From positions 3,317-67,316 of IMG/VR virus record IMGVR_UViG_2811995017_000005: DNA of 64,000 nucleotides; one strand, 5' to 3'. Shown here piece by piece: positions 14,888 to 31,718 of the stretch (the stretch's first letter is position 1; every line of letters begins with the position of its first letter). The translations under genes and the position numbers were made by a program. Source of the DNA: a virus. Lineage: Duplodnaviria; Caudoviricetes. The notes beneath the pieces are model-generated. The model did no database searches. It saw nothing but the letters and a program-made list of their open reading frames with translations, and was not told where the DNA came from.

Positions 14888-16429
14888 TTATTCGTTCGAT
14901 GTTGGTTCTGGTTCAGCTTTGTAAGGGTCTCCTACCTGTTTTTTCAGGTTTCTTTCTTGTAAAATCTCCATGAATTTAACTTCCGCATTCTCTTTTCCGC
15001 TTCGAGTGATCGCTCCTTTAACCGATTCCAACTCGTAGGCAATTTCTTCGCCTAGCTGCTCGACAAGGGCTTTTTGATCCTCCGGTAATGGAAGTCCAAA
15101 CACGATCTTACTTCCGTAATTGCTATCAACTTTCGCAAGCCATTCCTTCTCATATTTAAAGCGTGGATGTTCTTGGCGGGCTTTCATATAACGCAGAATG
15201 TATTCGTTCAACGTCTGTAGCCGCGACTGCCAAACGATCCATGCTCGCTGAGTTTTAGAAATGATCGATGAGTAAAGCATCTTCAATGCGAGGTCATTTA
15301 TGCCTCCGGTATTAAGATCTGCGGTATTAACCATTGGAACCTCGCTTATCTCGTGAAGGCGCTTCTGTAGACGGTCGAGATACGCCTCGATCGCCTCTTT
15401 AAATTTAAAGCCGCTTTCGAGTTTCTTTGCGTCAGGCTCTCCGATTTCTTTATTCGTTTCGCCAAGGTCCCAAATGGCTCCCGGCGCAATTTTAAACGGA
15501 TTTTTCGGATCGTACTCGACGTTTGTTAGTAGAGTGATCGCGAACATTTCAAACCGCAATGCGTCCGAGTAGTCGGATAGCTTCCGGTCAATCTCGTCGG
15601 CCGTTTCGATAAGCTTTTCAAGTTCGCTGAAGCCGCTTGTCTGCCCCGAAAGTTTATCCGTTGGAACGTGGACAACCGGGATAAAATCGAGCCCCATCGA
15701 TTCTCTTTCGACCCGCTTCTCGACAAGAGTAAGTCCGTCGTCGTATATCGCTTCTTCGATTTCACAATCGTAGTTTCCGGTATCCTCATCGCCTTTCCAG
15801 ACGAGATAATACGAAAGTTTCCAAAGCTTCGTCTGTTCTTCGTCCAGCCACGCAACGAAATGAACTTCGTCAAGTTGGTCGACATCCCATTCGTTATGAA
15901 CTGCGATAACCTCAGTCGAGGGATGCCAAAGGATTTTAATTTCGCCGCGCCGGGTATCGTAGTGCAGACGAGCATAAACGCCGGTTCGGCTGATTGCGCG
16001 ATCCTTTGCTGCTGCGAGTAGCTTCTCGTGCATCCGGTTTTCTTCCCATACCCACGTCAGCAAGCGTTCTTTCGCCTTTGCCCGGCTGTTTTCTTCCTCT
16101 TGTAGTGGACTTGGCGTGTATCCCGGCTTAATCATGTCCGCAGGATCGTCGAGAACGTCCGGAGGAACGGTCACTTTCGGTTCCTTTTCGAATTGCCAGG
16201 CCGCTGTAGAATCGATAAGCTTCCGCGGATAGTTCATCGTAAGCTGTGTCGGTTCATAATCGATTTCTTTCGGCTTAACGTAGTCAGTCCAAACGTTGAG
16301 ATCGCCTTCGTAGCGTCGGTAAAGCTTGATTTCGTCAACAATGCGCTGAAATTCTTTCGATCCAAGCGCTTCTTCCATTGGAAGGACGAATTGAAACGGG
16401 TTTATAAAATTTCGGTCAATGACTACGAT
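14888..16429 (-). CDS. Portal protein (SPP1 gp6-like), probable ATC start
   Basis: Follows terL; SD AAAGGAGG-8nt-ATC at 16429 with in-frame TAA immediately before. Confidence 0.85.
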   Translation of the reverse strand: MVVIDRNFINPFQFVLPMEEALGSKEFQRIVDEIKLYRRYEGDLNVWTDYVKPKEIDYEPTQLTMNYPRKLIDSTAAWQFEKEPKVTVPPDVLDDPADMIKPGYTPSPLQEEENSRAKAKERLLTWVWEENRMHEKLLAAAKDRAISRTGVYARLHYDTRRGEIKILWHPSTEVIAVHNEWDVDQLDEVHFVAWLDEEQTKLWKLSYYLVWKGDEDTGNYDCEIEEAIYDDGLTLVEKRVERESMGLDFIPVVHVPTDKLSGQTSGFSELEKLIETADEIDRKLSDYSDALRFEMFAITLLTNVEYDPKNPFKIAPGAIWDLGETNKEIGEPDAKKLESGFKFKEAIEAYLDRLQKRLHEISEVPMVNTADLNTGGINDLALKMLYSSIISKTQRAWIVWQSRLQTLNEYILRYMKARQEHPRFKYEKEWLAKVDSNYGSKIVFGLPLPEDQKALVEQLGEEIAYELESVKGAITRSGKENAEVKFMEILQERNLKKQVGDPYKAEPEPTSNE

Positions 16430-16444
16430 TTAAAACGCCTCCTT

Positions 16445-18196
16445 TCAGTAACGGTAGTTTCCAATGTTGCCGCCTTTTCTTCTACGCGACTTCACAACGG
16501 CCGAAACCACCATCTCTAACGCATCGATAACGTCATCGTGGGCGCCCGTGCCGTACTGCTCGAATTGTTCAAGCAAAAGCGCGTGCTTCCGATCGAATTG
16601 GATTGTTCCGTTTTCGATCGAAGGTAATAGCGCCTCGATACGGAGCTCTTTTCGACTGCGGTGTTTTACTTTCTTGACGCGAGTGTCTGCCGGATAGCCT
16701 GCGTGTGTAAGCTGTTTTTTCAGCTCATCGACGAAAAATTCTTGCGCCGCCTGAGCTTCTGCCGCAATTATGGTCGGCTGAAACTTGACGACCTTCTCGA
16801 CGATGACTTTCAAGAATTCGTCCGGCTTTAATCGTTGGCCGAACGTGTCTATAACATAAATAGAGCCGCTAACCTTATCGGCAGCGACGATCGCAATTGC
16901 GGAATAGTCTCCGCGTTCTTTTCCCATCGCAAAGTCTACGGCGAGAGAAACGTCATACTTCATATAGTCGATATTTCCATTGTGATACGTGAATTTTTCC
17001 GGGTTAAAGATCATCGATTCCTCGTCGATCGGGTTGTTCATGTACTCCGTATTGAACGCTTTGGAGCCGTTATCCCATTTCCAGCGCATCAACTTAAACA
17101 ACGGCTGAACGTCCGGCCACAAAACTTTGCTTCCTCGTAAGAGTTCGTCCTCGTTTTCCTTGTAAAACCGCTCTGCATCCGCAAGTCGATTCGGATTATC
17201 GCGATCGATATAGATCAGACGACACTTTTCCCAAAGATCAAGGCGTTCCGGCTGCTTTATAATCGCACGATAGACTTTTGTCACGAAATCGGACCTCTTA
17301 TAAAGAACGTGCATCAACAACGAATCCATATGGACGGTCGTTCCCATGTAAACGAAGGCTGTCCGCTTTCCTTTCGGATCTCCTAACGGCATTACAGTCT
17401 GCGAAAACCAGTCGCGAAGGTTCGACCGCTGTTCCGGCGTACTTGCGTTTCCGCCCGGCCGCGGATCCTCTAAGTCGTCGCAAATAATGAGATCCGGCCG
17501 CGTTCCGTTCCAGTTACGACCACGAAGCGCCTGACCGGTCGAAGCCGCCTGAACGAGCGCTAACTGTTTCCGGCTATCTCCATCCGGATGCCACGCGATA
17601 AATGATTCGGAGTTATCGATGATGTTCGCTTGGTCTTGCGGCGACAATAATGGCCCAAAGTCTTCGCGCAGCTTCTTGTTGAACTTAAGCTGATTCCGAA
17701 TCCATTCCATATTGGCTTTTGAAACCGACGGCGTCTCCGAAATAATGATCGTGTATTTCCGTTTTCGATAAACGATCTCGTGAACCGGAAAGGCTTTCGA
17801 AAGATACGTCGACTTGGCGTGCGAACGTGGCGCCGCTGCTGCTATCTTTTCGTTAACTATTTCGGTAGATACTACGTTCATAATGTCGCAGATCTCTACG
17901 TGGAAGGCCGGCGCCTCGCTTACATCCGTAACATCGAAGCCGTCCCAATTGCCGTCATTGTCCGGGTTGCGTGCGTCCGAGAAGTATTCGATAGAAAATT
18001 CGAGCAAGTTCCCCTCGCAACGATGAATCCGTTTAAGCCGCTCAAGTTCGGTCGCTTTTTCGTAATAGTCGGCGATCTCTGACGCAGGAATGTCATCGCC
18101 GTAAGTTTCGTCGAGCGCGTCCAAGTATTCGGTTAATACGTTGATGAGTTCTTCTCGTTCATCCCGCTTCAGCCAACGACCATCAACCCATGCGAT
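16445..18196 (-). CDS. terL: Terminase large subunit, probable ATC start
   Basis: PRSHAKST Walker A, LIICDD Walker B, HDDVIDAL nuclease; SD AAAGGAGG-8nt-ATC at 18196. Confidence 0.92.
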   Translation of the reverse strand: MAWVDGRWLKRDEREELINVLTEYLDALDETYGDDIPASEIADYYEKATELERLKRIHRCEGNLLEFSIEYFSDARNPDNDGNWDGFDVTDVSEAPAFHVEICDIMNVVSTEIVNEKIAAAAPRSHAKSTYLSKAFPVHEIVYRKRKYTIIISETPSVSKANMEWIRNQLKFNKKLREDFGPLLSPQDQANIIDNSESFIAWHPDGDSRKQLALVQAASTGQALRGRNWNGTRPDLIICDDLEDPRPGGNASTPEQRSNLRDWFSQTVMPLGDPKGKRTAFVYMGTTVHMDSLLMHVLYKRSDFVTKVYRAIIKQPERLDLWEKCRLIYIDRDNPNRLADAERFYKENEDELLRGSKVLWPDVQPLFKLMRWKWDNGSKAFNTEYMNNPIDEESMIFNPEKFTYHNGNIDYMKYDVSLAVDFAMGKERGDYSAIAIVAADKVSGSIYVIDTFGQRLKPDEFLKVIVEKVVKFQPTIIAAEAQAAQEFFVDELKKQLTHAGYPADTRVKKVKHRSRKELRIEALLPSIENGTIQFDRKHALLLEQFEQYGTGAHDDVIDALEMVVSAVVKSRRRKGGNIGNYRY

Positions 18197-18224
18197 AAAG
18201 ATCGCCTCCTTTCATTTTTCGTAT

Positions 18225-18282
18225 TGACTTTCGTTATCTTTTCCGTTAATATAAGTGTAACAAAATCATTTTTATGTTACGG
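18225..18282 (+). promoter_or_regulatory. sigma-A promoter plus dif-like 11-6-11 site upstream of small recombinase
   Basis: TTGACT-17-TAATAT; GTGTAACAAAA-TCATTT-TTATGTTACGG at 18255-18282. Confidence 0.65.
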
Positions 18283-18294
18283 AGAGTGAACGAA

Positions 18295-18843
18295 ATGGCA
18301 AACGAAGTTTTTCCGATTAAATCAAAACGCGATTACAACAAGTTTATTAAAGCACTGAAGCCGGGCCGTGATCGGGACTTAGGGCAGCTAGGAACTGCGT
18401 TCGGCCTGCGTATCAGCGACTTGTTAAAGTTTAAAATCGGAGAGCTTCGTGGCCATAAGTCGATCACGATTTGGGAGAAGAAACGGAAGAAAAAACGTGT
18501 GATTACGTTTAGCCCTTCCGTTCTTAAGATCGTTTCCCAACTCGAAGGCGATGACGACGATTACGTATTCGCCAGTCGGCAAGGTGGCGGCAAGCCGATC
18601 ACACGCGTTCAGGCATATCGTATCTTAAACGACGCAGCCAAACGGGCCGGCATTTACGAAAAGATCGGCGGCATCGGCACGCACTCGCTTCGTAAGACGT
18701 TTGGTTACCGCCTATATGAAAACGGCGTTGATATAACGCGCATTATGTCGATACTCAACCACTCAAGCGAGCGTGAGACGTTGAGATATATCGGGATTAC
18801 TGCCGACGAAATATCGGAAGCTTACGAAAGCATCGAGGTTTAA
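18295..18843 (+). CDS. Small catalytic-domain tyrosine recombinase
   Basis: GLRISD, HSLRKTFG, LNHSS...TLRYIG; 182 aa, no arm-binding domain. Confidence 0.9.
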   Translation: MANEVFPIKSKRDYNKFIKALKPGRDRDLGQLGTAFGLRISDLLKFKIGELRGHKSITIWEKKRKKKRVITFSPSVLKIVSQLEGDDDDYVFASRQGGGKPITRVQAYRILNDAAKRAGIYEKIGGIGTHSLRKTFGYRLYENGVDITRIMSILNHSSERETLRYIGITADEISEAYESIEV

Positions 18844-18862
18844 GACTTCGGTGCTTTTTTGT

Positions 18863-19240
18863 TTACAGAAGCGAAACCCATTTCGTTTGCCTTGTAGGAT
18901 GATCGTTTCTGTATCCGAGATTATTGACGACTTCGCGTTCCCACTTCTTCTCCTGATCCGTTTTAAGTTCGCTATACGCAAGGATAACCGTCGTTGGCCG
19001 CGTTCCTTTAAACTGCCACCCGACTGCCGCTTGGCCTACTGCTAAAGCTCGGAAATGCATTCGATCATTGTCGATATCCTTAAATACGCTTTCGATAATA
19101 CGCGCCTGATCCGGTGTATCCACTATCATGACTACGAATTCTACTGCGTTCAAGACAGCGTTTAATTGGCTGCGCATCTCATCGAATTGCTTCTCGTAAT
19201 CGTCGCTGGCGGTAAGTTTAACGGTTAGCTTTTCTCCCAT
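18863..19240 (-). CDS. Hypothetical phage protein
   Basis: 125-aa ORF coupled to upstream gene. Confidence 0.6.
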   Translation of the reverse strand: MGEKLTVKLTASDDYEKQFDEMRSQLNAVLNAVEFVVMIVDTPDQARIIESVFKDIDNDRMHFRALAVGQAAVGWQFKGTRPTTVILAYSELKTDQEKKWEREVVNNLGYRNDHPTRQTKWVSLL

Positions 19241-19605
19241 CAGAGTTCGCCCTCATCGTTTTCCGCTTTCCAGGATTCTCTGATCTCTCCCCACACTAAG
19301 CGGTGTCTTTCGGTAGAGGTAAGAATTCCTAACGCATCTTTCAGCTTAAGCGTATCGACATCCGGACTTTCGAGAAATTTTTCAAGGACTCGTGCGGCTC
19401 CTTCAATGCTTAGGTTCTGCTGCTCCTCCCGCAATTCAGCCAACGCCTTAGTCGCCGCCTTTGCCTCGCGTTGAATCGCCTTCAGGCCGGTTATCGCGTC
19501 GGATACATCAACGTCGATCTTGACGCTGATTCTGTCCGCAGCATTGCCCGTTTCGTACATCTGATTCGATCCCATTTCGATTGATTCGCGTTTTGGTTCC
19601 GCCAT
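19240..19605 (-). CDS. Hypothetical phage protein
   Basis: SD AAAGGAG; ISVKIDVDVSDAITGLKAIQRE. Confidence 0.65.
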   Translation of the reverse strand: MAEPKRESIEMGSNQMYETGNAADRISVKIDVDVSDAITGLKAIQREAKAATKALAELREEQQNLSIEGAARVLEKFLESPDVDTLKLKDALGILTSTERHRLVWGEIRESWKAENDEGEL

Positions 19606-19809
19606 TCACATCGTCTCCTTTTCGTTTAGTTGATTTCGAGTATCAATTCGTATCTGATCGCGTCAATGACTTCTGCAATCTCGTCACGCACCAAATGTCC
19701 GGAAGTCTGCAATGCAATCAAACGATCTAAATACGCCAGTAATTCCTCTGTTCTCGTCATCTTCATCGTCTCCTTTTTCGTTATTTAAGACGGTTATTAC
19801 CGCCATTTA

Positions 19810-19881
19810 CAGGGGCGACAGGGATCGAACCTGCCCACGCGGTTTTGGAGACCGCATCGCCACCGAGGAACATACGCCCCT
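19810..19881 (-). tRNA. Phage tRNA-Trp(CCA), no encoded CCA end
   Basis: AGGGGCG/CGCCCCT acceptor, GCGGT-CTCCAAA-ACCGC anticodon arm, GGTTCGATCCC T-arm; D-stem weak (G-U rich). Confidence 0.85.
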
Positions 19882-19882
19882 A

Positions 19883-20032
19883 TTTGCCGCACCGACCGGC
19901 TTTGGTATTACGAGAAACGCCCGTATGTCGATTTAGATACAGGCGTTTCTAACTGATCCCTACGCTACCTGGCCGGTTAATGTACGTACGTCAACCGAAT
20001 GCCTTTACGGCTCTATTGCTAGACGCAAGCAC
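19883..20032 (-). ncRNA. Putative structured RNA upstream of tRNA-Trp
   Basis: Two GNRA-like hairpins then ~110-nt irregular rod (ACCGGC/GCCGGT, AGAAACGCC/GGCGTTTCT). Confidence 0.4.
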
Positions 20033-20088
20033 AAAAAGAGCGACCCTTATTCGGATCGCCCTCGTTCTGATTGCGTAAGAAATTCGTC

Positions 20089-20226
20089 TTAGTCCGGTAA
20101 TTTGACGTCAGCTAATTCCGCAAGCTTTCGAAAAGCTATGTTGTTAGTCAGCGGTCCCGCTTCGCACTCAAAACCGCACTCCTTAATTTGCTCAACGATT
20201 TCTTTTAGTGTTTTAAATTCAGGCAA
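20089..20226 (-). CDS. Small hypothetical protein
   Basis: SD AAAGGAG + TTG; followed by terminator 20033-20063. Confidence 0.55.
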   Translation of the reverse strand: MPEFKTLKEIVEQIKECGFECEAGPLTNNIAFRKLAELADVKLPD

Positions 20227-20303
20227 TTTTACCCTCTCCTTTTTTATCCTTTGCAGGTATTTTGATCTAATTTGTCGAAATACATACAAAAGGGGGTGAA
20301 TAT

Positions 20304-20510
20304 ATGAATTTGGTTCCGGTAAGATCTTCGAATTTAAGAGCAGTCGGGTATGATCCGTATTCTCAGGTTTTAAGAATTGTATTTCACAACGGGACTTATG
20401 ACTATTATGGGGTACCTAAGAGCATATATGACGGATTAATGTCAGCGTCTTCATTAGGGCAATATCACGACAGATTCATCAAAAATCGCTACAGATTTTC
20501 AAGAATTTAA
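20304..20510 (+). CDS. KTSC domain protein
   Basis: VRSSNLRAVGYD...LRIVFHNGTYDYYGVP...SLGQY, canonical KTSC pattern. Confidence 0.9.
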   Translation: MNLVPVRSSNLRAVGYDPYSQVLRIVFHNGTYDYYGVPKSIYDGLMSASSLGQYHDRFIKNRYRFSRI

Positions 20511-20544
20511 ATTTAACAGGCGCCGTTTGTTTGGCGCCTTCGTA

Positions 20545-20656
20545 TATGCGGGCGAGGATTTGCACCTCGCATGACAGCATTCGGCCACGTCTCCGATTTC
20601 AGATCGGGAAGTATCTGCCTTAAGCATTAAGCGTCTACCTGTTCCGCCACCGCATA
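20545..20656 (-). ncRNA. tRNA-Leu-like RNA with non-canonical T-loop and expanded core
   Basis: TATGCGG/CCGCATA stem, GGCGGAACAGGTAGACGC D-arm, GCGAGG-TGCAAAT-CCTCGC T-arm. Confidence 0.6.
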
Positions 20657-21000
20657 CGATATTAATTACGTTTTTGATAAACGACTCAAAGCCTCGTAGT
20701 TATTCGCGATTGTCTGCTTTATTAAGGCCCTCCGTAGTTGCTCACGATTCATCCCTTTCGTCCTCCCATCGAATTTACACGAAATTAGCGTTTCTAACCG
20801 TTACCCTACCGAATACCCTCGGCGGAGGCTAAGACGTCTAATTTCGTGTGATTTGCGCGTGAAAATCGTTATGTTAAGCCGCTATAATAACAAGCCTCGT
20901 AATATTCGTCCCAACATCGCTCGCACATATGCCGATCGTTAATATCATCGTAGTCTAATTCGACATCTTTTTCGCAAACATCACATTTCTGAATCATCAG

Positions 21001-21213
21001 CTACACCTCCGCAATGGTGTCGCCGTCTCTTATACCTAAATCGCGATAACCTCGAATAGTATCGTAAAAATCATCATCGTAGTCGCCGCTTAATTGTGTA
21101 TTATGCCAAGGGTGAAACATTTCGTGCCATTCTTCTGCGGCTTCCCTCGTACATTTCTCCCACATAACGCGCTCTTTGCAATCGTGGCAAGCCGAAATAT
21201 AATAGACGCCCAT
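21001..21213 (-). CDS. Small Zn-binding hypothetical protein
   Basis: CHDC...H..FH.WH; strong SD. Confidence 0.6.
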   Translation of the reverse strand: MGVYYISACHDCKERVMWEKCTREAAEEWHEMFHPWHNTQLSGDYDDDFYDTIRGYRDLGIRDGDTIAEV

Positions 21214-21524
21214 CTTTCGTCCTCCTTTTCGTTATTCCTCACGTAACTTGCGCCTGTATTCCGAAATACCATCGTCATCTCCATATCGCGGCTGTCTATC
21301 GTCTGTCCACATCGGTTCGATGCGGCTATAACCGTTTCCTAGATCGATGATTCTCCGATACTCGCGAAGGTCATACGCGCCGGAGGCGATTAGGCGTTGA
21401 TGGAGCGTCGAATTCGCCCAAGGATTCGAGTTATGTTCGACAGTGTTTAGCGTTATTGACATCGGTTGCACCTCCGCAAAGTCAAAGTGAATTTTTGATG
21501 TGCGCGTTTAAGATGCGCCTGGAG

Positions 21525-21730
21525 CCGCGGATTTTGTTTTTCCCTCCCCGGCCCCCTCCTTCGTTGTGTATCCGGTATTCATTCGTTTGTATATCGAGTG
21601 TAACACTATCGGATTCTGTTACACTGGCGTTCATCGCAATCGTTGTCATATCAACGTTCATTCGTTGTTGTATTGCGCTATGTATTTCGTTTTATTTATG
21701 CATCGTATAAACCGCGTCATATCAACGTTC
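21525..21730. other. Candidate cos/pac packaging region
   Basis: Non-coding, downstream of terS; CCCTCCCCGGCCCCCTCC tract and 15-bp direct repeat GTCATATCAACGTTC (21645, 21716). Confidence 0.5.
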
Positions 21731-21901
21731 TTATGTCCGGCAGGATCAGCGCGATATGTATAAGATAGTGCATAAACGGATGGGCTTTCGTCAAAGTGAT
21801 CGGAGGGTCGCGCGCCAGGAGGTTTCAGCTGACAGAATACTATCCGCCGTCACCCCTCGTAAACCCTCCGTATCCTATCCGTTTCCTATATACTGCGCCC
21901 A

Positions 21902-22291
21902 CTATTCGGCATCCTTACGCAACGCCCTCATACGCTCTATCTGCGCCTTCATCTCGTCTATGTCCGTATCGCTGCCGTTCTTATTCTCTACGACAACATT
22001 ATCCGTAAGCATACTATGCGCCTGCAATAACGTCCTGAACATCGCAGCGTTTCCGTCGTTAATGATATGATCCGGTATGGAATCCATTACTTCCGGTAAA
22101 CGATCGAGAGTGTTCCGCATAATCTGGCGCTTTAGTTCGTCATTAAACGAATCATTCTGCCGCCATTCATATAACGTCTGCCTACTTACGCCTACTTCTT
22201 CGGCAATCTGATCGTAAGTCATTCCGCCTCTTTTCGGCTGTGCTAAAATCGTTATGGCAGCGATCTGTTTTTCGCTAAGTTTCCGGGCCAA
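21902..22291 (-). CDS. terS: Terminase small subunit (HTH)
   Basis: LSEKQIAAI...TYDQIAEEVGVSRQTLYEW...F HTH typical of Bacillus TerS. Confidence 0.75.
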   Translation of the reverse strand: MARKLSEKQIAAITILAQPKRGGMTYDQIAEEVGVSRQTLYEWRQNDSFNDELKRQIMRNTLDRLPEVMDSIPDHIINDGNAAMFRTLLQAHSMLTDNVVVENKNGSDTDIDEMKAQIERMRALRKDAE

Positions 22292-22642
22292 TTTTCCGCC
22301 CTCCTTTCCGTTAAGTTTACGTAGCTTTACGTCCTTCTACTACGTAAGACAGCATAACGATATACTTTATAACAATCGATCTATATTAACGCAATATTAA
22401 CGCTATCCTTTCGTATGTTTAAAACCTAGCGTCCACTCCGTCGCTTACGCTCCTCCGTGTCCGCGGATATTATTAAGACCTTTATCGCGATACAATTATT
22501 TATACAATATACATGATTGCGTTTCTGCGGGACGGAGTGAAACGTAGTTCCCGCTAGTCTTCGGATTCAGAAGACTAAGAAGTGATTACGGACTCAAAAT
22601 CGCTGTATCCCTTGCGGCTGTAGGCACGAACCCCATTTTCGG

Positions 22643-22694
22643 TTGTGCGAATAAAGTCGTGTTTTTGGCCGATTTGTGCGAATAAGATCGTGTT
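22643..22694. repeat. 21-bp iteron-like direct repeat, 31-bp period
   Basis: TTGTGCGAATAAAGTCGTGTT / TTGTGCGAATAAGATCGTGTT. Confidence 0.7.
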
Positions 22695-22824
22695 CATTAT
22701 CAATTACGTTATTCTAATTGAGAATAAGGCGATAATCAACCGACCTCTCACCGTTATATCACTCGTATTATTATTCATATAAACGAATAAATATACGACG
22801 TCAACACGAAGAAATAGACGCCAA

Positions 22825-23043: not shown

Positions 23044-23096
23044 TCGATCACCTCCGCACTAATTATACGCCAGAGAATATTTTTTCGCAAATTCGC

Positions 23097-23125: not shown

Positions 23126-23152
23126 AAGAGTATAGAAAGGAGGTGAACGTAA

Positions 23153-23703: not shown

Positions 23704-23952
23704 AACGAAGACGTCGATATTGCTTATCGAGTGGCTGACGACATGGCTGCGGAAGCCAAAGACGCCCAAGAAACGGTTGAGCGCGAGTACATTGTCGAAG
23801 GAAAAGATTACGCTGTTTCAGCGGATGACGGCGGCTTTAGTTTCGATCCGGCAGCCACAGACGCAAAGCCAGGCGATCGGATCAGCGTTACTTTTACGAA
23901 GGATCAATACGAAAATGGCAGCGGATTTAAGGCGATTAAGGTTATCGAATAA
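23696..23952 (+). pseudogene. Probable frameshifted/deleted small exported protein
   Basis: SD-led ATG is out of frame with the acidic, protein-like 23731-23952 frame. Confidence 0.4.
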
Positions 23953-24107
23953 CACACGAAATCAGGCGTTAAGCGGCCGCCGATACCTAATATACCCGCA
24001 GCAGCTTCCGGCGGCTCCTACGCTTTAATTTCGTGGGAAAATCGTTGTCTACGGCGTTGAATCCGTCGTGCTAATGTCGTATTCTAATAGTCGGAGGTCG
24101 AGGACGA

Positions 24108-24281
24108 ATGGATTATGAAACAAAAGGCTACGATACGACGATTGTATACGATTATAAGGAGTATCCGGACGTTCATTACGGACGCTGCGATAACTGCGAT
24201 TACACGTTGTTTAAAAGTTCGGTGAAGGACGGGATATTTCTTCGCGAGTGCCGTAGATGCGGAATGAAAAAGAGCATATAA
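24108..24281 (+). CDS. 57-aa zinc-ribbon protein
   Basis: MDYETKGY...RCDNCD...ECRRCGMKKSI; followed by bidirectional hairpin 24291-24320. Confidence 0.7.
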   Translation: MDYETKGYDTTIVYDYKEYPDVHYGRCDNCDYTLFKSSVKDGIFLRECRRCGMKKSI

Positions 24282-24312
24282 AACGAGAAAGGCCCGGCTC
24301 GATTTGAGCGGG

Positions 24313-24636
24313 CTATTTTTCTTCTGCGTTTACAACAGAAATTCCTATTTTCTTGTTTGTTGGATCGTAAATACCTGAAAACTCTTTTTCTTTATCGTTA
24401 TTTATGTAGCCGGATACTTCTACACCGCCCGTTGGATCGATGTTATAGTCTTTAGAAAAATGAACTTCCGACACATTTTTATAGTCTTTTTTCAAATAAC
24501 TTCTCATTTCCTCTTTTGCTTCTTCTACTAATTTTTGTTCGGCTTTATGATTATCGTATTGATGCTTCACGAAAAAACCCCCAACTGCTATAATCATAAC
24601 CAATAGGATAATAATGTATTTTCTCAAACAGATCAT
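24313..24636 (-). CDS. Membrane-anchored DUF1433-like protein, candidate immunity
   Basis: N-terminal TM then YLKKDYKNV...DPTGGVEVSGYINND; likely start TTG 24627. Confidence 0.65.
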   Translation of the reverse strand: MICLRKYIIILLVMIIAVGGFFVKHQYDNHKAEQKLVEEAKEEMRSYLKKDYKNVSEVHFSKDYNIDPTGGVEVSGYINNDKEKEFSGIYDPTNKKIGISVVNAEEK

Positions 24637-24680
24637 CCTTTCTTTCTTTATTTTACATTATATGAAAGGTGAAGTATACG

Positions 24681-26114
24681 TTGACAAAACAAAAAAATGT
24701 AAGAAAACCAAATGTTTCTGATGAAGAGTATTTTAATTTGAGCAGGGCTTCATACCACTATAAGACCCTGAAATTACACATAAAATATAAAAAACCATAT
24801 AAAATCAATAAAACCTCTTATTGGTACATCGAACAAGTTAAACAGGATACAGATACCGGTTTAGATGCATTCGTTTTCTCTCAAGCCGAAAATAAGAATG
24901 GCAAATGGGTTAAATCAAACAACCCGAAAAACGTCGTCGTAGCCTTCGCAGGCACTGATCTCTCAAAAGATCTCGAAGCAGACGGCGCGAAAGCGGACGC
25001 TGAAAATGTCGCCATCGGATTGGACCCTAAAAAAGAGACAGAATACATTGTCGAAAAAGGTGCGAAAGATACGTCAAAAACGCTTGGGGTATATACTCGA
25101 TCAATGGAGCAACTCCAGATGATGGAGTCTGGAAACTATAAAGTGATTACAAAGACGACGCAAATCGACCAAGCCGATCAATTGGTTAGAGAAGTCAAAC
25201 AAAAGTATCAAGGGACATCGACGATTGTTTCAACGACTGGACACTCGCTTGGAGGCGCGGAGGCAGAATACAGCGCAGTCAGCAATAATGTCTATGCAGT
25301 AGCATTCAACAGTCCGTCTATCGTTAAGCTTCATACAGAAGAAAAACAGAAGCAAATCAATAACGGGGAATATAACACTTATGTAAAATCGATCATCAAT
25401 CCGGACGACATGGTTGGTTCCGGCTGGTGGGACGAATTTGATCGCCACAACGGGACAACCATCTACACAAAAGACCCTTCCATCGCAACGTCTAATCGCG
25501 AGAAAAGGCTTGACGGCAATAAGCTCCAACAGGTCGGAAGAAACCTCATGTATTTCGCGAATACGCTGATCTTCCAAAACCCGGATACTCATGGCCTCAA
25601 TAAAGGAAACTTTGTATTCGACGAAGACGGCAACGTTCAAAATGTTGAAGGCGATGAACTCGTCTACGATAAAAATTTAAAAGCAATGCTTCCGGCTGAA
25701 GTCGTTTCCGGGAGCGGCGCGATTAAAGTCACCCCCGAAGTCGCTAAGCAGCTTGCGGAAAAAGTAAATGCGATTATAAACGACCTGCGTACGATGAAAA
25801 GAGAAGCGGAAAACGCCTACCAGGAACATGACGCTGCGATAAGCGATCTGAAATACGATACCTATCGCCAGGTCGGTCACGGCTTATACGATCAGCTTAC
25901 GCTCGGTGATGTAAACAATACGCTGAATGATTTGGCGCAGTCGTTTGATAAAAAAGGGAATCCGCTGTTTTACGATGTCGATGCCGAAGCGGCATATATC
26001 GCTTCATTACAAGACACGATTTCAGATTTAGAAGAAATCAGCGGCTATCTGGCGCAAATCGCAAAGGATTTCAAATCAAAAGACAAGATGCTCGCAAACT
26101 GGTTAAAGTTATAA
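24681..26114 (+). CDS. Lipase (GHSLGG) with C-terminal LXG/WXG-like helical domain; putative T7SS toxin
   Basis: VVAFAGT, TGHSLGG, NPDDMVG, DTHGL; C-term IKVTPE...helical...FKSKD. Confidence 0.75.
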   Translation: MTKQKNVRKPNVSDEEYFNLSRASYHYKTLKLHIKYKKPYKINKTSYWYIEQVKQDTDTGLDAFVFSQAENKNGKWVKSNNPKNVVVAFAGTDLSKDLEADGAKADAENVAIGLDPKKETEYIVEKGAKDTSKTLGVYTRSMEQLQMMESGNYKVITKTTQIDQADQLVREVKQKYQGTSTIVSTTGHSLGGAEAEYSAVSNNVYAVAFNSPSIVKLHTEEKQKQINNGEYNTYVKSIINPDDMVGSGWWDEFDRHNGTTIYTKDPSIATSNREKRLDGNKLQQVGRNLMYFANTLIFQNPDTHGLNKGNFVFDEDGNVQNVEGDELVYDKNLKAMLPAEVVSGSGAIKVTPEVAKQLAEKVNAIINDLRTMKREAENAYQEHDAAISDLKYDTYRQVGHGLYDQLTLGDVNNTLNDLAQSFDKKGNPLFYDVDAEAAYIASLQDTISDLEEISGYLAQIAKDFKSKDKMLANWLKL

Positions 26115-26147
26115 AATTAAAGGCGCCAATAGGCGCCCTCTTTCGTT

Positions 26148-26213
26148 TTATGCTCCGCGCGGAAACCCGTATTTAGGCTTCGGCAACTCTTTCGCTCCTA
26201 CCGTAAATCCCAT
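26148..26213 (-). CDS. 21-aa small ORF
   Basis: SD GGAGGTGA; MGFTVGAKELPKPKYGFPRGA; then hairpin 26120-26140. Confidence 0.4.
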   Translation of the reverse strand: MGFTVGAKELPKPKYGFPRGA

Positions 26214-26237
26214 CCGTATCACCTCCGACATGGTAAA

Positions 26238-27038
26238 TTATACTTTCTTAACGTTAAACATCGCAAGCAGCGTCTTATCCGGCGCCTTGGATTGTCGATA
26301 AAACACGTTAGGATTGAACGTATATCGCTCCGGTTCGCTGCCGACCTTTATTCGCGCGACAACGAATTCCCCGTCGAATTTCATCTGTTTCAACCGTCGG
26401 CCAAGCGTATCCGGCGTTACTCCGATCGCCGCCGCTAGCTCCTTCTTATTGAACCATCGGATATACTTCGGATTCTTTTCGAAAGGATTGGCGCATAGAG
26501 CGTTTGTTTCGTAGTGGACGAACGGCAACATCCGGTAGATCAGTCCGATGTCTGTCGCTTTCACTTCGCTGTATACCTTCTTAATCTTCGCGGTATACAA
26601 TTTGACAACGTACTGGCTACCGAAGTTACCTTTGAAGTGGTAGCGCTCGTTCACCGCGTATATGCCGTTTTCTTCCCGGATAATATCGTGCGCAGTACAG
26701 GCACTGAGGAAGTCGTAGAACGTTCGCGGCTTTTTCGCAAGTTGTAGAACGGCCATCATATCCGCTGTGGTCATCGGAGTTTTATCGCGGCTGGATCTAA
26801 CGAGAACACCGTTATAGTCAACGTAGCATTGCAGCAGCATCAGATAACCGCATTGTGCCGTTGTGAGAGCGTCATAGACTTCGTGAATATTAGACATATT
26901 GGCGTTGGAAAAGTCGCGCCTGTCCGTCGTCTGTTTTTGTTGCTCCCGGAAGGCTTCGTCCTGATTCCGGTGTCTAAGCGTATAGTCTGTCGATAGATCT
27001 TCTCCTGTTTCTGCGTTTACTACCCGTAATCTCTTCAA
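26238..27038 (-). CDS. RepL-like/winged-helix DNA-binding protein
   Basis: VVNAETGE N-term, NKKELAAAIGVTPDTLGRRL HTH, YTFNPNVFY. Confidence 0.6.
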   Translation of the reverse strand: MKRLRVVNAETGEDLSTDYTLRHRNQDEAFREQQKQTTDRRDFSNANMSNIHEVYDALTTAQCGYLMLLQCYVDYNGVLVRSSRDKTPMTTADMMAVLQLAKKPRTFYDFLSACTAHDIIREENGIYAVNERYHFKGNFGSQYVVKLYTAKIKKVYSEVKATDIGLIYRMLPFVHYETNALCANPFEKNPKYIRWFNKKELAAAIGVTPDTLGRRLKQMKFDGEFVVARIKVGSEPERYTFNPNVFYRQSKAPDKTLLAMFNVKKV

Positions 27039-27169
27039 AATATCGTCTCCTTTTTCGCAAAATAAAAGAGCGCGGATGTGGCGCCCTCATAACGTATAGA
27101 CAGCTAAACGGGTAAAAGTATCGGGGTTGGTGAGAAATTTTTTGGATATTGAACTTTCAGGGTGAAACT

Positions 27170-27964
27170 TTATTCATATTTAGATAAATCGTCTTCAACT
27201 TGTATCTGGTCGAGACGCTTATTAATTATTTCTATATACTCTTTTTCGGTCTCGAATCCAATCCACTTGCGATTATTTAATTCACAAGCTACTGCTGTTG
27301 TTCCGCTGCCTAAACAGTTATCAAGTACCGTATCACCTTCGTTGGTGTAAGTCTTGATAAGGTATTCAAATAATTCAACTGGTTTCTGTGTCGGATGCAA
27401 ACCTGTATCATTTTTAAACTCCAAAAGGCTGTTCGGATAACCTGTTTTTGTTTGTCTGTATGAGTCTTTCAATCCTGGTCTATCACCGCCATAATTAGCT
27501 CTCATTGTTTTGTTGTTTTTTACTGTTTTATCTATTTCCAATAGACCTTGTGGAAAGTACCTCATTTTGTTTTTGGAATTTGTAGGAATTCCGCCTTTAC
27601 TGAAAACTAAAACATTTTCGTGCTTCTTCATCGGTTTGTTTTTTGCGTCAAACGCCCCCCCAACTATACTTTTAATCCATATCCACTCATATTTAAAAAG
27701 TTCTATTTTGCTATTAACCAACTGACTTGTAAAAGGTTGAGAAGCTGTTAAGACTATTGCTCCGTTGTCTTTTATGATGCGTTCGTATTGCTCCCAAAGC
27801 GGTTCAAAGGGGATTATAGTATCCCACTTACAAGCGGTCGTTCCATATGGTAAATCACACAAAATCATATCCACGCTCCCGGCGGGAATTAATTTCATAC
27901 CCTCTAGACAATCCATTTGATATGCTCTATTTAACTCTAAACTTCCCAATAACTCTTTCCCCAC
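27170..27964 (-). CDS. Orphan N4/N6 DNA methyltransferase (beta class)
   Basis: DLPY motif IV precedes HPTQKP and DNCLGSGTT motif I; lower GC. Confidence 0.9.
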   Translation of the reverse strand: MGKELLGSLELNRAYQMDCLEGMKLIPAGSVDMILCDLPYGTTACKWDTIIPFEPLWEQYERIIKDNGAIVLTASQPFTSQLVNSKIELFKYEWIWIKSIVGGAFDAKNKPMKKHENVLVFSKGGIPTNSKNKMRYFPQGLLEIDKTVKNNKTMRANYGGDRPGLKDSYRQTKTGYPNSLLEFKNDTGLHPTQKPVELFEYLIKTYTNEGDTVLDNCLGSGTTAVACELNNRKWIGFETEKEYIEIINKRLDQIQVEDDLSKYE

Positions 27965-28161
27965 TTAATCACTCCTGTAATTGTTTAATTTACTTTTTAA
28001 GACTACTTTCACGATTTTCATAATGGTATTTATAACATTCCATCATATCTTCAAACACCGTATATTCATCCGTGCATTCTGAACAAATACATAGGTCAAA
28101 ACTACTATCATTATAATCTCCTATACTAACTCTCCTTCACCCTCATAGTTCAAGAAACTAC

Positions 28162-28668
28162 TTATCTATTAATAGGTGCATACCCAATTTTTTCGCCTGT
28201 TGTGATATTGACAGTAAATTGTCCCGGTGTTTTCCCTTTCACGAAATCCAAATATTTTTTCCGTCTCTCTTTATTACGAGCTTTAGCGCATCGATCCATC
28301 TGAATCCCTTCGTAAGTTGAAAGGCGTCTCCGAGCCGGTTTCCCTTGATTTTTGCCAAACTCATCGTACTCTTCAGCCATCTTCTCGGAAGTTTCTCCAG
28401 ATCTGCGCGTTTTCTCCATACGCTCACTCATGATCGGATACTCATCGTTCTTCATTTTGTTTTTATTTGTGTCCGATAGTTCCTCGTATATAATAAGATT
28501 CGCCATACGTTCAAGCGCGATGGAGTCCGGATGCTCTCCGACGGCATCAAAGTAAGCGTCGGCCAACGCAGTAATTTCCTCGATACGTTCAATGCGATCC
28601 AATTCTCCGGCTTTTGTTCGTTGCTGTAATTCCGTAATCATTTCGTGCAGTAGCGTTTTATCCATCAA
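28162..28668 (-). CDS. Conserved phage protein coupled to sigma-r4 gene
   Basis: Overlaps stop of upstream gene; LERMANLIIYEELSD...EYPIMS. Confidence 0.6.
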   Translation of the reverse strand: MMDKTLLHEMITELQQRTKAGELDRIERIEEITALADAYFDAVGEHPDSIALERMANLIIYEELSDTNKNKMKNDEYPIMSERMEKTRRSGETSEKMAEEYDEFGKNQGKPARRRLSTYEGIQMDRCAKARNKERRKKYLDFVKGKTPGQFTVNITTGEKIGYAPINR

Positions 28669-29048
28669 TTTCGTCCTCCCATCGAGTACCCTTCGTTATG
28701 TCCCGCCCAATAGTAGTAAATATCCGCGATCTTATCTGCTGCAAAATCGATATAACGTCCGACAGCAGCCTGCGTTATCCCCATCCTCTTCCCCGCCTCC
28801 ACTTGCGTCAGGTCTTCGAAATATACGAGCCGGATGGCCTCACGCTGCCTGTCGGTCAGATTCGCAAGCTCAATCGCGTTGTGCAGATCGAGCAGAACTT
28901 CGGCAGCTTCGTATTCTCCGAGTCGTTTGCGGCTGACGAACTTCGGATAATCGGAGAGCAGCGTTTTGACACCCTCCGCATTGTCCAACGCATATGTCGT
29001 TTCAAATTCGCGATCCTTTCGGTGTAGATCGATTTTGACTGTTCCGAT
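28665..29048 (-). CDS. Sigma-70 region-4 HTH protein (late transcription regulator), probable ATC start
   Basis: LTDRQREAIRLVYFEDLTQVEAGKRMGITQAAV; SD AAAGGAGG-8nt-ATC 29048. Confidence 0.8.
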   Translation of the reverse strand: MGTVKIDLHRKDREFETTYALDNAEGVKTLLSDYPKFVSRKRLGEYEAAEVLLDLHNAIELANLTDRQREAIRLVYFEDLTQVEAGKRMGITQAAVGRYIDFAADKIADIYYYWAGHNEGYSMGGRN

Positions 29049-29163
29049 AACAACCGCCTCCTTTTTTCGTTAATAACTTCGTTAACTTTCCGCGCAACTC
29101 TGTTGACTATCGGTAACTAATCCGGCTATACTGAACGTAAATACTTTCGTAAGGAGATTCGAT

Positions 29164-29553
29164 ATGGCAATCGAATGGATTTCAAGCGAGATACCTCGCG
29201 ATCTTAAAGCGTTTATTACAGTTGATAATTACGGAAGGTTCTGTATGTCGATGGGTGCGCGCCGCGCTTTAAAGCTTCCGGAAAAAACGGGGTTCCAACT
29301 ATTCCTTGCATATGATAAAGACGAGCGAAGGATAATCGTAGGAAAGCCCGGGCATGTTTCGATAAAAGGCGATGTGAGGCCATTTAAATTTGATCCGCGT
29401 GGTTACTCATCCGCACGTCCATATATCCGCAAACAGAATTTATACGGCCCAGATCTTCCACAGCGATTCTACCTAATCGGCGATGGTGAAGCGTCCAAGC
29501 AACCGTACCTGGCCTATCCGAAAGGCACGTATGCGTTTCAATTAGACGAGTAG
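29164..29553 (+). CDS. AbrB/MraZ-like hypothetical protein
   Basis: FITVDNYGRF...RRALKL swapped-hairpin-like motif; SD AAGGAG. Confidence 0.5.
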   Translation: MAIEWISSEIPRDLKAFITVDNYGRFCMSMGARRALKLPEKTGFQLFLAYDKDERRIIVGKPGHVSIKGDVRPFKFDPRGYSSARPYIRKQNLYGPDLPQRFYLIGDGEASKQPYLAYPKGTYAFQLDE

Positions 29554-30102
29554 TTTCGCCATAATCGCGTCCAGCTTCTCGTACAACTCTTCCGGCTTGC
29601 CTGCGTTCTCGATTTCGTAATCAACTTCGAAACTGTTAACGGCAAGCTCAGTCGGATGCCCCAAGTCGGCAAGATCGAATTGATCGCCGGCTTTTTTTGC
29701 GCGTTCAATACGGAGATCAACCGGTGCTGTTATGCGGATAAATACGAAACCTTCGTCCTTCAGACGCTGATATTCGTTAGGCTGCCGGCAGTCATCGATG
29801 ATCACGCGATTCTTTAGCGCCGTATTGCCGCAGTCGCAAGGATGGCGGTCGAGATAGGCGGCCACTTTCGGCATGAGAGCGTCGATCCATACGTCCTCTC
29901 CGAAAGCTTCTCGCGCCCACTGACCGAACTTTTGATAATGCGCGCGTGGTTTCGGCGTTCGCGGAACGTTAGGGAATGCGCGGTGAAATGCGTCCTTTAG
30001 TTCGTCGCCGAATGCGAACGGCTGGAAATCGTAGTGAAGCGAAATGTACGATGCGGCCAGCGACTTGCCTGCGCGAAGTGGCGCGGTGAGGGCGATTTTC
30101 AT
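29542..30102 (-). CDS. Deoxynucleoside monophosphate kinase
   Basis: APLRAGKS P-loop, FAFGDELK, IIDDCRQPNE. Confidence 0.8.
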   Translation of the reverse strand: MKIALTAPLRAGKSLAASYISLHYDFQPFAFGDELKDAFHRAFPNVPRTPKPRAHYQKFGQWAREAFGEDVWIDALMPKVAAYLDRHPCDCGNTALKNRVIIDDCRQPNEYQRLKDEGFVFIRITAPVDLRIERAKKAGDQFDLADLGHPTELAVNSFEVDYEIENAGKPEELYEKLDAIMAKLLV

Positions 30103-31142
30103 CGGCACTCCCTCATTGCGTTAAGAAGCGCGGCAACCTCTTCGGCAGTGAACAGGCGCATATCTGAATCGGATTCGAGGTGCGCCACCTTTCCGTCCGT
30201 TTCCTTTGCGGCATATTTCAGCGCCTCCAATTCTTCGCCGTGCCTCCGGTTGTCCTTGTGCAGCGTGTCGATTTCGTCTTGTAGACGTCTAGTTTCTTCG
30301 TATAGAAAATCGGATGTATCCTCGTTTGTAGCATAATCGTGTACGATTCTATCCTCTAGCTTAGCGATATCATGACGAATGTCCGAAACGGCATTCCGCA
30401 ATTCTGCGATCCTTCCCGGCCCTATTTCGTACCAGCCGAGCTCTTCCTTGATTCGTTTATTCTCGCGTTCCAACTCCGCAACACGCGTCGCCAGGTTAGC
30501 GATAACGTCGATCGGGTCGGATGGTTGCGGTTCTTCTTCGGAAGATTCGACCGGGACGAGGACGCGGTATTCTTCGTACTCTGCGTCTAAAAAATTCTCA
30601 CCTAGAACGCCATTAACCAAAAAGAAGGACCCGTTGTCATGAAAGTCGTCAACTTCTTTTACGGAGTCGACAAATCCTTTCGGAAAATCATCGCTCTCAG
30701 TTACGATAACCTTCTCGCCTATTTCCGGCTTACGATCGACCATTTCGTAGCGCTCCGGACCGTCAGGGCCGTCAATGTGGGCGATATTGGTCGGTTCGAG
30801 AACGCGGTATTCTCCGAGGTAGATAAGTCCGCCACAGTTCATACCGGATGTGGCTTCGCCGCATTCCACGAAACCCGATCCAGGAGGAGCTTCGCGGTCT
30901 ACCGTAAAAATATCTCCGTTCTCGTAAATATCGCCCGGATACCTTTTGTCTACGATCACAATCTTATCGCCGACCTCCGCCTTCCTATCGACCTCTACAT
31001 ATTCCCGTTTGATTCCGCCAAGTGATTCGTCAGCCAATACGTGGATTTTTTCGTTAGTTTTAGTCATTTTACCGAGCTCCCTTCGTATTAATCGTTCAAA
31101 TTCCGGCTTAACCCGATCCATCGCGCTTTTAAGGAAGTCCAA
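30099..31142 (-). CDS. Repeat-module plus coiled-coil phage protein
   Basis: Two DRKxxxGxKxxx modules; possible internal start at MTKTNE. Confidence 0.65.
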   Translation of the reverse strand: MDFLKSAMDRVKPEFERLIRRELGKMTKTNEKIHVLADESLGGIKREYVEVDRKAEVGDKIVIVDKRYPGDIYENGDIFTVDREAPPGSGFVECGEATSGMNCGGLIYLGEYRVLEPTNIAHIDGPDGPERYEMVDRKPEIGEKVIVTESDDFPKGFVDSVKEVDDFHDNGSFFLVNGVLGENFLDAEYEEYRVLVPVESSEEEPQPSDPIDVIANLATRVAELERENKRIKEELGWYEIGPGRIAELRNAVSDIRHDIAKLEDRIVHDYATNEDTSDFLYEETRRLQDEIDTLHKDNRRHGEELEALKYAAKETDGKVAHLESDSDMRLFTAEEVAALLNAMRECR

Positions 31143-31158
31143 ACGAACCGCCTCCTCG

Positions 31159-31716
31159 TTATTTAATAACCCGCAATTCTACCGACTGCCGGCCGAACTG
31201 TACTGCGTCTGCTTCATTCGCGACCAACAGATCGAGCCGTGCGCCTTTAATCATGCCGCCTGTGTCGATCGCCTTCGCCCGGAAATTCGAACCGTCAGCG
31301 AGTCGGACTTCAACCGTAGAGCCAAGCGCAATCACAGACGGATCGACCGCTATGACGCGTGCTCCCTCGTAGTAGATCGAATGGCTGACGTCGACTCCCG
31401 TTTTGGTGATGCCGGTGCAGCCTTCCGAACAGAATGCGGTATAAGCCGAGGCCTCGAACGTTTTCCATCCCGATTCAACTTTTGTACTCTTTACGGACAT
31501 CTGCTTCGACTTCTTCAGCGCCCTAATTTCGTCCTCAAGCGCCTGTATCTGCGCGTCCTTTTTCGTTATCTCTTTCGTTAATTCTTCGTTACGCGATTCT
31601 GCCGATTGAAGTGCGGCCTGATCTGGCGTTATCCTTGGCGGTTCTGGCGGCTGATCTGCCGGACAATGGCCGGAGAATAGCTGCGCTGTTAGCGTAAAAT
31701 TCGTTAGGATACCGAT
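31159..31716 (-). CDS. 3D-domain (MltA-like) cell-wall protein, probable ATC start
   Basis: ASAYT...IAVDPSVIALGS...AIDTGGMIKGARLDL; SD GAGGAGG-7nt-ATC. Confidence 0.85.
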   Translation of the reverse strand: MGILTNFTLTAQLFSGHCPADQPPEPPRITPDQAALQSAESRNEELTKEITKKDAQIQALEDEIRALKKSKQMSVKSTKVESGWKTFEASAYTAFCSEGCTGITKTGVDVSHSIYYEGARVIAVDPSVIALGSTVEVRLADGSNFRAKAIDTGGMIKGARLDLLVANEADAVQFGRQSVELRVIK

Positions 31717-31718
31717 GC

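Follow-up and report, generated by a model that had tools for sequence, protein, structure and literature searches.

Near-cognate start codons are, as a kind, already known. Initiation factor 3 (IF3) discriminates against AUH codons (AUU, AUC or AUA) such as AUU, and infC starts at AUU; in Escherichia coli, the AUU starts of infC and of pcnB keep translation low, and infC is thereby made sensitive to IF3. We examined the start codons of four genes in a 64,000-base stretch of a Caudoviricetes provirus of Bacillus (IMG/VR record IMGVR_UViG_2811995017_000005, positions 3,317 to 67,316; the whole stretch is called the window here), namely terL (large terminase), the portal gene, a gene for a sigma-70 region-4 protein (the sigma-like gene) and a gene for a 3D-domain, cell-wall enzyme-like protein (the 3D gene). 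Each has an in-frame ATC codon behind a strong Shine-Dalgarno (SD) sequence, and our assessment is that these four ATC codons are likely genuine start codons giving low, tuned translation. With infC and pcnB they would share the near-cognate AUH start and the low translation, whereas the phage differs in using AUC, in four unrelated genes, and in having no evident feedback loop, as no IF3 domain was found in the provirus.

In E. coli reporters, AUA, AUC, AUU and CUG initiate at about 0.1-3% of the AUG level, and the AUC product carries an N-terminal Met (bioRxiv 10.1101/063800). The same mechanism is presumed for the phage genes, but those values come from reporter constructs and E. coli ribosomes, not from Bacillus behind a perfect SD of 8 nucleotides (nt). 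In Deinococcus, an ATC start of dnaA was identified by N-terminal mass spectrometry, and the same paper gives ATT as the infC start of many bacteria (PMC2830850). The dnaA case is similar to ours in that the ATC start is conserved among related species and was missed by automatic annotation, but there the proof is proteomic, whereas the evidence for the phage genes is comparative, and the organism and gene are different (PMC2830850). For TP-J34, a temperate phage of Streptococcus thermophilus, the AUU start of orf28 was rechecked by re-sequencing polymerase chain reaction products obtained using the terS-F and terS-R primers, and these primer names imply that orf28 is the small-terminase gene (PMC3952083). 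A temperate phage, a Gram-positive host and an AUH start are common to both cases; as far as the passages on orf28 extend, however, that case comprises one gene in one phage pair with AUU, whereas here AUC is found in four genes, terL and portal among them, and prevails in the sampled terL family. The Phage Annotation Guide remarks in general terms that phages also use TTG, CTG, ATT and ATC starts and that gene callers miss such starts (PMC8785237); the first-codon counts within a family and the named genes come from the present analysis. In a literature search that had most subscription journals outside its reach, neither AUC starts of terL or portal genes in Bacillus phages, nor an AUC-prevailing terminase family, four AUC starts in one phage, or co-variation of start codon, SD and second codon were found described.

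The window covers 64,000 of the 67,316 bases of a single-contig provirus record, which CheckV rates as 100% complete; its GC content is 46%, and its minus strand carries nearly all genes. The nearest named relatives are the temperate B. subtilis siphophages 268TH007, 268TH002 and phi18-2, with about 80% nucleotide identity over terL and portal, and more distant ones are Bacillus phage KLEB27-1, Sporosarcina phage Lietuvens and Paenibacillus larvae Halcyone-type phages. Public runs from 10 studies, food-fermentation metagenomes for the most part, also have contigs with the window DNA; no RNA run was among those listed as carrying the sequence. Locus labels include L003 (268TH007), L005 (phi18-2), L007 (KLEB27-1), L026 (Heath), L027 (Lietuvens) and L028 (C7Cdelta), and ATG, GTG and TTG are called canonical throughout. 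The original prediction had placed a near-perfect SD and, 7-8 nt downstream of it, an in-frame ATC at the head of four minus-strand genes, and all four sites are present in the sequence as it stated. The genes and their initiation regions are as follows.

16445..18196, minus strand: terL gene, 583 codons from ATC 18196-18194, stop codon counted
18197..18214, minus strand: terL initiation region, with in-frame TGA 18214-18212, SD AAAGGAGG 18212-18205 and the 8-nt spacer cgatcttt
14888..16429, minus strand: portal gene, 513 codons from ATC 16429-16427
16430..16447, minus strand: portal initiation region, with SD AAAGGAGG 16445-16438, spacer cgttttaa and in-frame TAA 16432-16430 abutting the ATC
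28665..29048, minus strand: sigma-70 region-4 protein gene, 127 codons from ATC 29048-29046
29049..29072, minus strand: initiation region of the sigma-like gene, with in-frame TAA 29072-29070, SD AAAGGAGG 29064-29057 and the 8-nt spacer cggttgtt
31159..31716, minus strand: 3D-domain (cell-wall enzyme-like) gene, 185 codons from ATC 31716-31714
31717..31749, minus strand: initiation region of the 3D gene, with SD GAGGAGG 31730-31724 within the end of thyX, spacer tgtaagc and thyX stop TAA 31721-31719

Upstream of the terL, portal and sigma-like ATC codons, an in-frame stop is reached after 5, 0 and 7 codons, respectively, with only the SD and no ATG, GTG or TTG in between, and none of the canonical codons chosen in the list of open reading frames (ORFs), i.e., TTG 18124 for terL, ATG 16378 for portal and TTG 28988 for the sigma-like gene, is preceded by an SD. 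Both features had been claimed for these three genes before, and checking the sequence bore them out. The terL stop TGA (16447-16445) overlaps the portal SD, and the 3D ATC lies 2 nt past the thyX stop. All four ORFs are intact and match known profiles. TerL matches Terminase_6C (PF17289) at 4.6e-11 (43.4 bits, cut-off 22.6) and phrog_38 at 8e-96, and the portal protein matches SPP1_portal (PF05133) at 1.1e-20 (74.4 bits, cut-off 25.5) and phrog_64 at 1.9e-52. The sigma-like protein matches Sigma70_r4 and, with residues 2-125 on profile positions 2-126, phrog_3512, while the 3D gene product matches the 3D domain and phrog_27183.

The terL start was followed through its family. The SD, spacer, ATC and upstream stretch are identical in the window, 268TH007 and phi18-2, in surrounding DNA that has diverged to about 80% identity, and the window's TTG 18124 is TTA or CTA in the two phages. 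A scan of one genome per prokaryotic species gave 17 prophage loci in Bacillaceae and Paenibacillaceae with 50-95% amino acid identity and a tblastn match from residue 1; their first terL codon is ATC in 11, TTG in 4 and ATG in 2, always with an SD 6-9 nt upstream. A profile scan of IMG/VR added 80 terL loci, and five (L047, L051, L058, L063 and L066) were dropped as their match did not begin at residue 1. Across the resulting 92 loci, the aligned first codon is ATC in 68, ATG in 12, TTG in 9, and ATA, ATT and GTG in one each. These loci collapse to 81 distinct sequence contexts, 61 with an AUH codon and 20 with a canonical one. Of the 61 AUH contexts, 47 are free of any in-frame ATG, GTG or TTG from the upstream stop to the AUH codon; in the rest, a canonical codon occurs only 5' of the SD (9 contexts) or within the spacer (5). 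The SD-AUH spacing is 8 nt in 45 of 60 AUH contexts. The same codon is ATG in phages Heath and C7Cdelta and GTG in Lietuvens, and the C7Cdelta record carries the remark 'difficult start call'. When 16 members of the family are aligned, W3, W8 and R14 of TerL do not vary. The conservation of the site, the exchange of codons at it and the invariant residues behind it therefore point to the aligned codon as the start codon of the terL family. In a quick FastTree tree of 95 proteins, with the first 12 residues excluded, the start changed between near-cognate and canonical at least 14 times. Judged by these alignments, AUC is the commonest first-codon state in the sampled terL family and has been gained or lost repeatedly, and the AUC-start trait is old and widespread in siphophages and prophages of the Bacillales.

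The stretch between each ATC and the next canonical codon gives a further line of evidence. Among close relatives, variable sites in this stretch fall on codon positions 3, 1 and 2 in numbers of 15, 5 and 5 for terL, 10, 4 and 1 for portal, and 8, 5 and 3 for the sigma-like gene, and by this measure the N-terminal extensions evolve as coding sequence. This agrees with the proposal that the extensions xAWVDGRW and xGTVKIDLH are conserved as protein: third-position variation predominates, and W3 and W8 of TerL do not change in the 16 sequences. The aligned codon is canonical in 22 of the 92 terL loci and in 9 of the 31 sigma-like loci, so that relatives carry ATG, TTG or GTG exactly where the window has ATC, which argues for ATC as a real start codon. 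Aligning the 5' ends in relatives, the check that had been suggested for the four genes, thus returned ATC in 68 of 92 terL, 21 of 31 sigma-like and 32 of 32 3D loci, and ATC or ATA in 21 of 71 portal loci.

For portal, the SD and ATC are kept in 268TH007 and phi18-2, and the in-frame stop before the ATC is TAA or TAG (TAG in 268TH007); the window's ATG 16378 is ATC in both phages. The portal start was scored where the next long gene could be assigned, which was the case at 71 of the 92 terL loci, with ATG in 29, TTG in 19, ATC in 17, ATA in 4 and GTG in 2. The 21 AUH portal starts span 10 distinct N-terminal sequences (8 ATC and 2 ATA), and homologous portals that start with ATG (L010, L091-L108) begin within one codon of the window ATC. 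At L021, L094, L095 and L101, the gene in the portal position opens with ATA, GGAGG lies 8-9 nt upstream, there is no canonical alternative nearby, and homologs have an aligned TTG. In Heath and C7Cdelta, the terL stop is followed by a CTG with AAGGAGG 9 nt upstream and an in-frame TGA 3 codons upstream, and the N-terminal part of portal shows homology to the portals of L023-L025, whose start is TTG or ATG; the GenBank coding sequence (CDS) starts 42 codons later, at a GTG. From this arrangement, the portal of these two phages very likely starts at the CTG. Two distant prophages (L009 and L022) share a short element in the first ~70 nt past the terL stop, followed by an extra ORF before portal, and Lietuvens (L027, 3225-4044) has an HNH endonuclease gene between terL and portal; the extra ORF and the HNH gene may be mobile insertions.

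The aligned first codon of the sigma-like gene is ATC in 21, ATG in 8, and TTG and ATA in one each of 31 IMG/VR loci, one further locus having been dropped as its match began at residue 53; among the named phages, it is ATG in 268TH007 and KLEB27-1 and ATA in phi18-2. For the 3D gene, ATC is the first codon in all 32 loci. The 3D gene and the end of thyX overlap at 21 loci, and in the window too, with an in-frame NTG 11 codons upstream, but this codon tells little because it is built from the Pro-Trp codons of thyX, with ATG, GTG or TTG depending on the Pro wobble base. Six of the 32 loci (5 distinct upstream contexts) have no in-frame canonical codon upstream. In phi18-2, an HNH gene follows thyX, and the ATC of the 3D gene has another SD in front of it, AAAGGA at 8 nt, and a stop 6 codons upstream. 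Only KLEB27-1 shows a nearby canonical start in this gene, an ATG 3 codons downstream.

Chance does not account for the pattern. As a control over all codons, we took GGAGG sites without a canonical start (orphans) and scored any codon 7-8 nt downstream that begins a frame of 100 codons or more and is preceded by a stop no more than 20 codons away. GGAGG occurs 126 times in the genome; a canonical start follows in 49 instances, which leaves 77 orphans, and those passing the control have ATC in four cases, AAG, GAC and AGA in one case each, and every other codon in none. The three non-ATC cases are explained by an ATG just upstream or downstream, or by a position inside a gene. The association of SD and ATC thus exceeds chance.

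Features other than the start codon vary with it in terL. The predicted SD duplex has a mean of -18.1 kcal/mol in AUH contexts vs -15.8 kcal/mol in canonical ones (Mann-Whitney p 0.009, uncorrected for phylogeny), computed with an anti-SD motif entered by hand. Among AUH contexts, 57 of 61 have GCA or GCT as their second codon; GCG takes this place in 16 of the 20 canonical ones (window 18183-18196, minus strand; L009-L108), while Ala codons in gene bodies are GCG in 45%, GCA in 24%, GCT in 17% and GCC in 14%. In about 12 phylogenetically independent pairs, about 9 differ in the same direction, about 0.4 in the opposite one and about 2.6 not at all (median p 0.004). The sigma-like gene shows no coupling of its second codon to the start class. 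The co-variation in terL may be compensation or may concern a decoy out-of-frame AUG. Compensation is the reading we favour: where the start codon is weak, the SD would be strong and the second codon well read, and where it is strong, the SD would be weaker and the second codon GCG. That SD strength and second codon change together with the start codon suggests selection on one expression level rather than on an on/off switch.

The mechanism we propose is as follows. A very long SD (AAAGGAGG or GAGGAGG, 7-8 nt upstream) would anchor the 30S subunit, and fMet-tRNA would pair imperfectly with the near-cognate AUC, so that the proteins would begin with Met and not Ile. Since AUC initiates poorly, initiation would be rare and translation low, the strong ribosome-binding site being retained nonetheless. 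A low yield may suit proteins that are needed sparingly or are harmful in excess, such as the terminase, the 12-copy portal, a transcription regulator and a wall enzyme. The earlier suggestion that AUC caps low-copy proteins is consistent with the stronger SD and the different second codon of AUH terL genes. The suggestion that the four form a late or lytic set is imprecise: the 3D gene comes after thyX in a nucleotide-metabolism block and the sigma-like gene after a methylase, in the nucleotide-metabolism and regulatory part.

Several other explanations have to be weighed. Bacillus mRNAs contain SD-like elements that stabilise them without starting translation, and if the SD sites here acted only as such stabilisers or as standby sites, the proteins would start at the downstream canonical codons and ATC would be an ordinary Ile codon or untranslated. 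The choice of other starts by gene callers and in GenBank records, together with the existence of those elements, speaks for this view. Nevertheless it is very unlikely, as the downstream canonical codons are not conserved (TTG 18124 becomes TTA or CTA, and ATG 16378 becomes ATC), the stretch from the ATC evolves as coding sequence and holds invariant Trp residues, relatives have ATG, TTG or GTG precisely at the ATC position, and phrog_3512 aligns from residue 2 of the sigma-like protein. Scarcely more credible for terL, the one gene it concerns, and if anything slightly less so, is initiation at the out-of-frame ATG or TTG that the wobble base of the second codon creates 5 nt into the gene (GCA TGG), whether as a decoy, a mini-ORF or an entry point for a frame shift. 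In the window this frame has two codons, ATG GGT TGA. It is in favour of this explanation that the second codon gives ATG or TTG in 57 of 61 AUH contexts and GTG in 16 of 20 canonical contexts, which holds in independent pairs, and that Val codon 4 is GTT in 23 of 31 AUH contexts vs 32% GTT in gene bodies. But the mini-ORF and the T of codon 4 fail in independent pairs (2.4 same way, 1.6-1.9 opposite), no slippery site that joins the ATG frame to the terL frame was seen on reading the window sequence, the portal, sigma-like and 3D ATC genes have no overlapping ATG, the sigma-like gene lacks the second-codon coupling, and the ATG or TTG that relatives have at codon 1 marks the true terL start. 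The mini-ORF, enriched in the raw counts (46/71 vs 6/24 rows) and unsupported by the independent pairs, was rejected. So was a programmed frameshift or other recoding at the 5' end, as the out-of-frame ATG occurs in terL only, the mini-ORF is unsupported and no slippery site was seen. Sequencing error, or a decaying prophage whose start codons have mutated away, would be a natural concern given that the record is a provirus and that a single change separates ATC from ATG. It can be set aside for practical purposes: ATC recurs in the terL, sigma-like and 3D loci in the numbers given above, it is found in the plaque-forming phages 268TH007 and phi18-2, and the four ORFs are intact. In addition, the terL and the portal ATC codons are both covered by contigs from 4 runs in 4 studies, with no other letter listed. 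Error and pseudogenes were thus ruled out by the ATC shared among relatives and by independent assemblies, and the outcome named beforehand as refuting, that homologs have ATG and reads show G, was not what was found, since those 4 runs have no other letter and relatives mostly have ATC in terL.

The remaining rival goes beyond a weak start and was part of the original prediction. It holds that AUC makes packaging and regulatory genes dependent on IF3 activity or on the state of the ribosome, as in late infection, under stress or through a phage factor. The perfect SD plus AUC would then be a conserved regulatory module of Bacillales siphophages and not a mere weak start, serving as a timer or state sensor for packaging; the output of TerL, portal and the late regulator would scale with relaxed IF3 proofreading, and the second codon and out-of-frame AUG would have co-evolved with it. 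It is established that IF3 discriminates against AUU and that infC starts with this codon, which lends the idea plausibility, and terL and the sigma-like gene each open a transcription unit, behind a gene on the opposite strand. Furthermore, the terL start is ATC in 68 loci, ATA in 1 and ATT in 1, though gene bodies use ATT in 39%, ATC in 38% and ATA in 23%; such a preference for ATC implies selection for this particular codon and not for any weak one, and it is because of this preference that we retain the switch as a rival, both it and its elaboration as a module being unlikely. No phage factor is evident: the Pfam families IF3_C and IF3_N, the only two searched for such a factor, have no matches in the provirus at E <= 1, and the only tRNAs that ARAGORN finds in the window are Trp(cca) and Ala(ggc), neither of which would decode AUC as a start. 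Similarly, 268TH007 retains three ATC starts, yet its authors report no tRNA genes (PMC9476937). The 14 or more switches between AUH and canonical starts in terL, and ATG in 8 of 31 sigma-like loci, indicate that close relatives manage without AUC, and the co-changes of SD and second codon fit level-tuning better.

Some observations also weigh against genuine, low-yield AUC starts. The window 3D gene has an in-frame GTG 11 codons upstream of its ATC (31749-31747), and although this GTG has no SD, it could be used additionally or instead; a start there would put positively charged residues before the hydrophobic N-terminus, and the PHROG 27183 profile covers those 11 upstream residues. In terL, L011 and L042, both at a contig end, are counted as ATC with an in-frame ATG directly upstream, and they belong to the five spacer cases; the other three AUH contexts of that group also have a canonical codon within the spacer. 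About a quarter of terL homologs manage with ATG, TTG or GTG, so AUC is not essential, and the canonical share seems higher in the wider protein database, where 71 of the best 120 proteins begin exactly at M/L-A-W. The loci are not independent, as many represent one prophage lineage sampled from several genomes, and the genome and IMG/VR sets contain some duplicates. The 'low yield' is carried over by analogy from E. coli data and not from Bacillus behind such an SD, and the evidence for initiation at ATC is wholly comparative.

A fifth ATC gene had been suspected at the tail terminator. This gene has an ordinary start:

9871..10311, minus strand: tail terminator gene, with canonical GTG 10311-10309 overlapping the upstream stop (GTGA)

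The junction is ATGA in 268TH007 and phi18-2, and the suspicion was not sustained. In a wider scan of the window for AUH or CTG codons behind weaker SDs, most matches, once terL, portal and the sigma-like gene are set aside, are followed by a canonical codon after 1-2 codons; for an ATT at 51361, the nearest is 7 codons downstream. Weaker AUH candidates stand behind a partial SD on the minus strand at 21843 (ATA), 3464 (ATT) and 39500 (ATA), with no in-frame canonical codon upstream and none within 10-41 codons downstream. In KLEB27-1 (~20880-20940), GGAGGGGAGG is followed after 8 nt by an ATA frame with a full lipoprotein signal peptide (Lys-rich start, hydrophobic core, LLSGC), and the annotated gp26 start falls inside that hydrophobic core. 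By the make-up of this frame, the ATA is probably a further AUH start, in a different gene.

A hairpin that masks the start was not found at any of the four initiation regions, which fold no better than shuffles (z -0.57, 0.96, 0.33 and 0.37); a 5-bp GCGAU/AUCGC stem predicted for terL is not significant. The motif CGAAAGTCAA occurs upstream of the terL SD (window 18224-18233, minus strand) and, in the one-mismatch form CGATAGTCAA, upstream of the sigma-like gene (29103-29112, minus strand); the same motif CGAAAGTCAA lies upstream of terL in L010, L013, L017, L034 and L080. The two units headed by an AUC gene may have it in common as a promoter or operator. As a shared promoter-like motif it was rejected on counts, as it is not enriched in the window (11 matches vs 7.4 expected, with 14 of 100 shuffles reaching 11). 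Divergent from terL is an ORF (window 18274-18843, plus strand) at the position for which the records of relatives give a C-terminal tyrosine recombinase fragment; this arrangement is annotated in 268TH007, phi18-2, Lietuvens and KLEB27-1, adjoining the genome end or terminal repeat. The two tRNA genes found by ARAGORN, Trp(cca) and Ala(ggc), are at window 19809-19882 and 59455-59527, both on the minus strand.

The likely AUC starts bear on how these phages are annotated. In the GenBank record of 268TH007, whose genome announcement is silent on start codons and reports no tRNA genes (PMC9476937), the CDS start lies downstream of the SD and ATC by 105 codons for terL and by 64 codons for portal (L003 ~1753 and ~3524). 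In that of phi18-2, the terL CDS starts at a TTG without SD 25 codons upstream and the portal CDS at a GTG 14 codons downstream (L005 ~1638 and ~3409). A protein-database search with TerL scored 8000 candidates, 965 of them at E <= 1e-50. Among the N-termini of the best 120 proteins, sorted by regular expression and by eye, about 25 are truncated and 19 begin further upstream and continue through I-A-W or I-A-F, often with the SD translated as R-K-E/G; both outcomes are what gene callers produce from AUH starts. On this comparison, GenBank records of the relatives mis-annotate these genes, and in the database many members of the family are cut short or extend through the SD.

AUH starts are regarded as extreme rarities and are ignored by gene finders, and here a single phage probably has four genes that begin with AUC. 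AUC and AUG or UUG versions of the same gene, natural and repeatedly evolved, offer a way to study the relative weight that Gram-positive ribosomes give to the SD, the start codon and the second codon. If it is true that the AUC starts respond to IF3, these phages would provide a rare case of regulation by start-codon proofreading outside infC, in a host, B. subtilis, that is genetically easy to work with.

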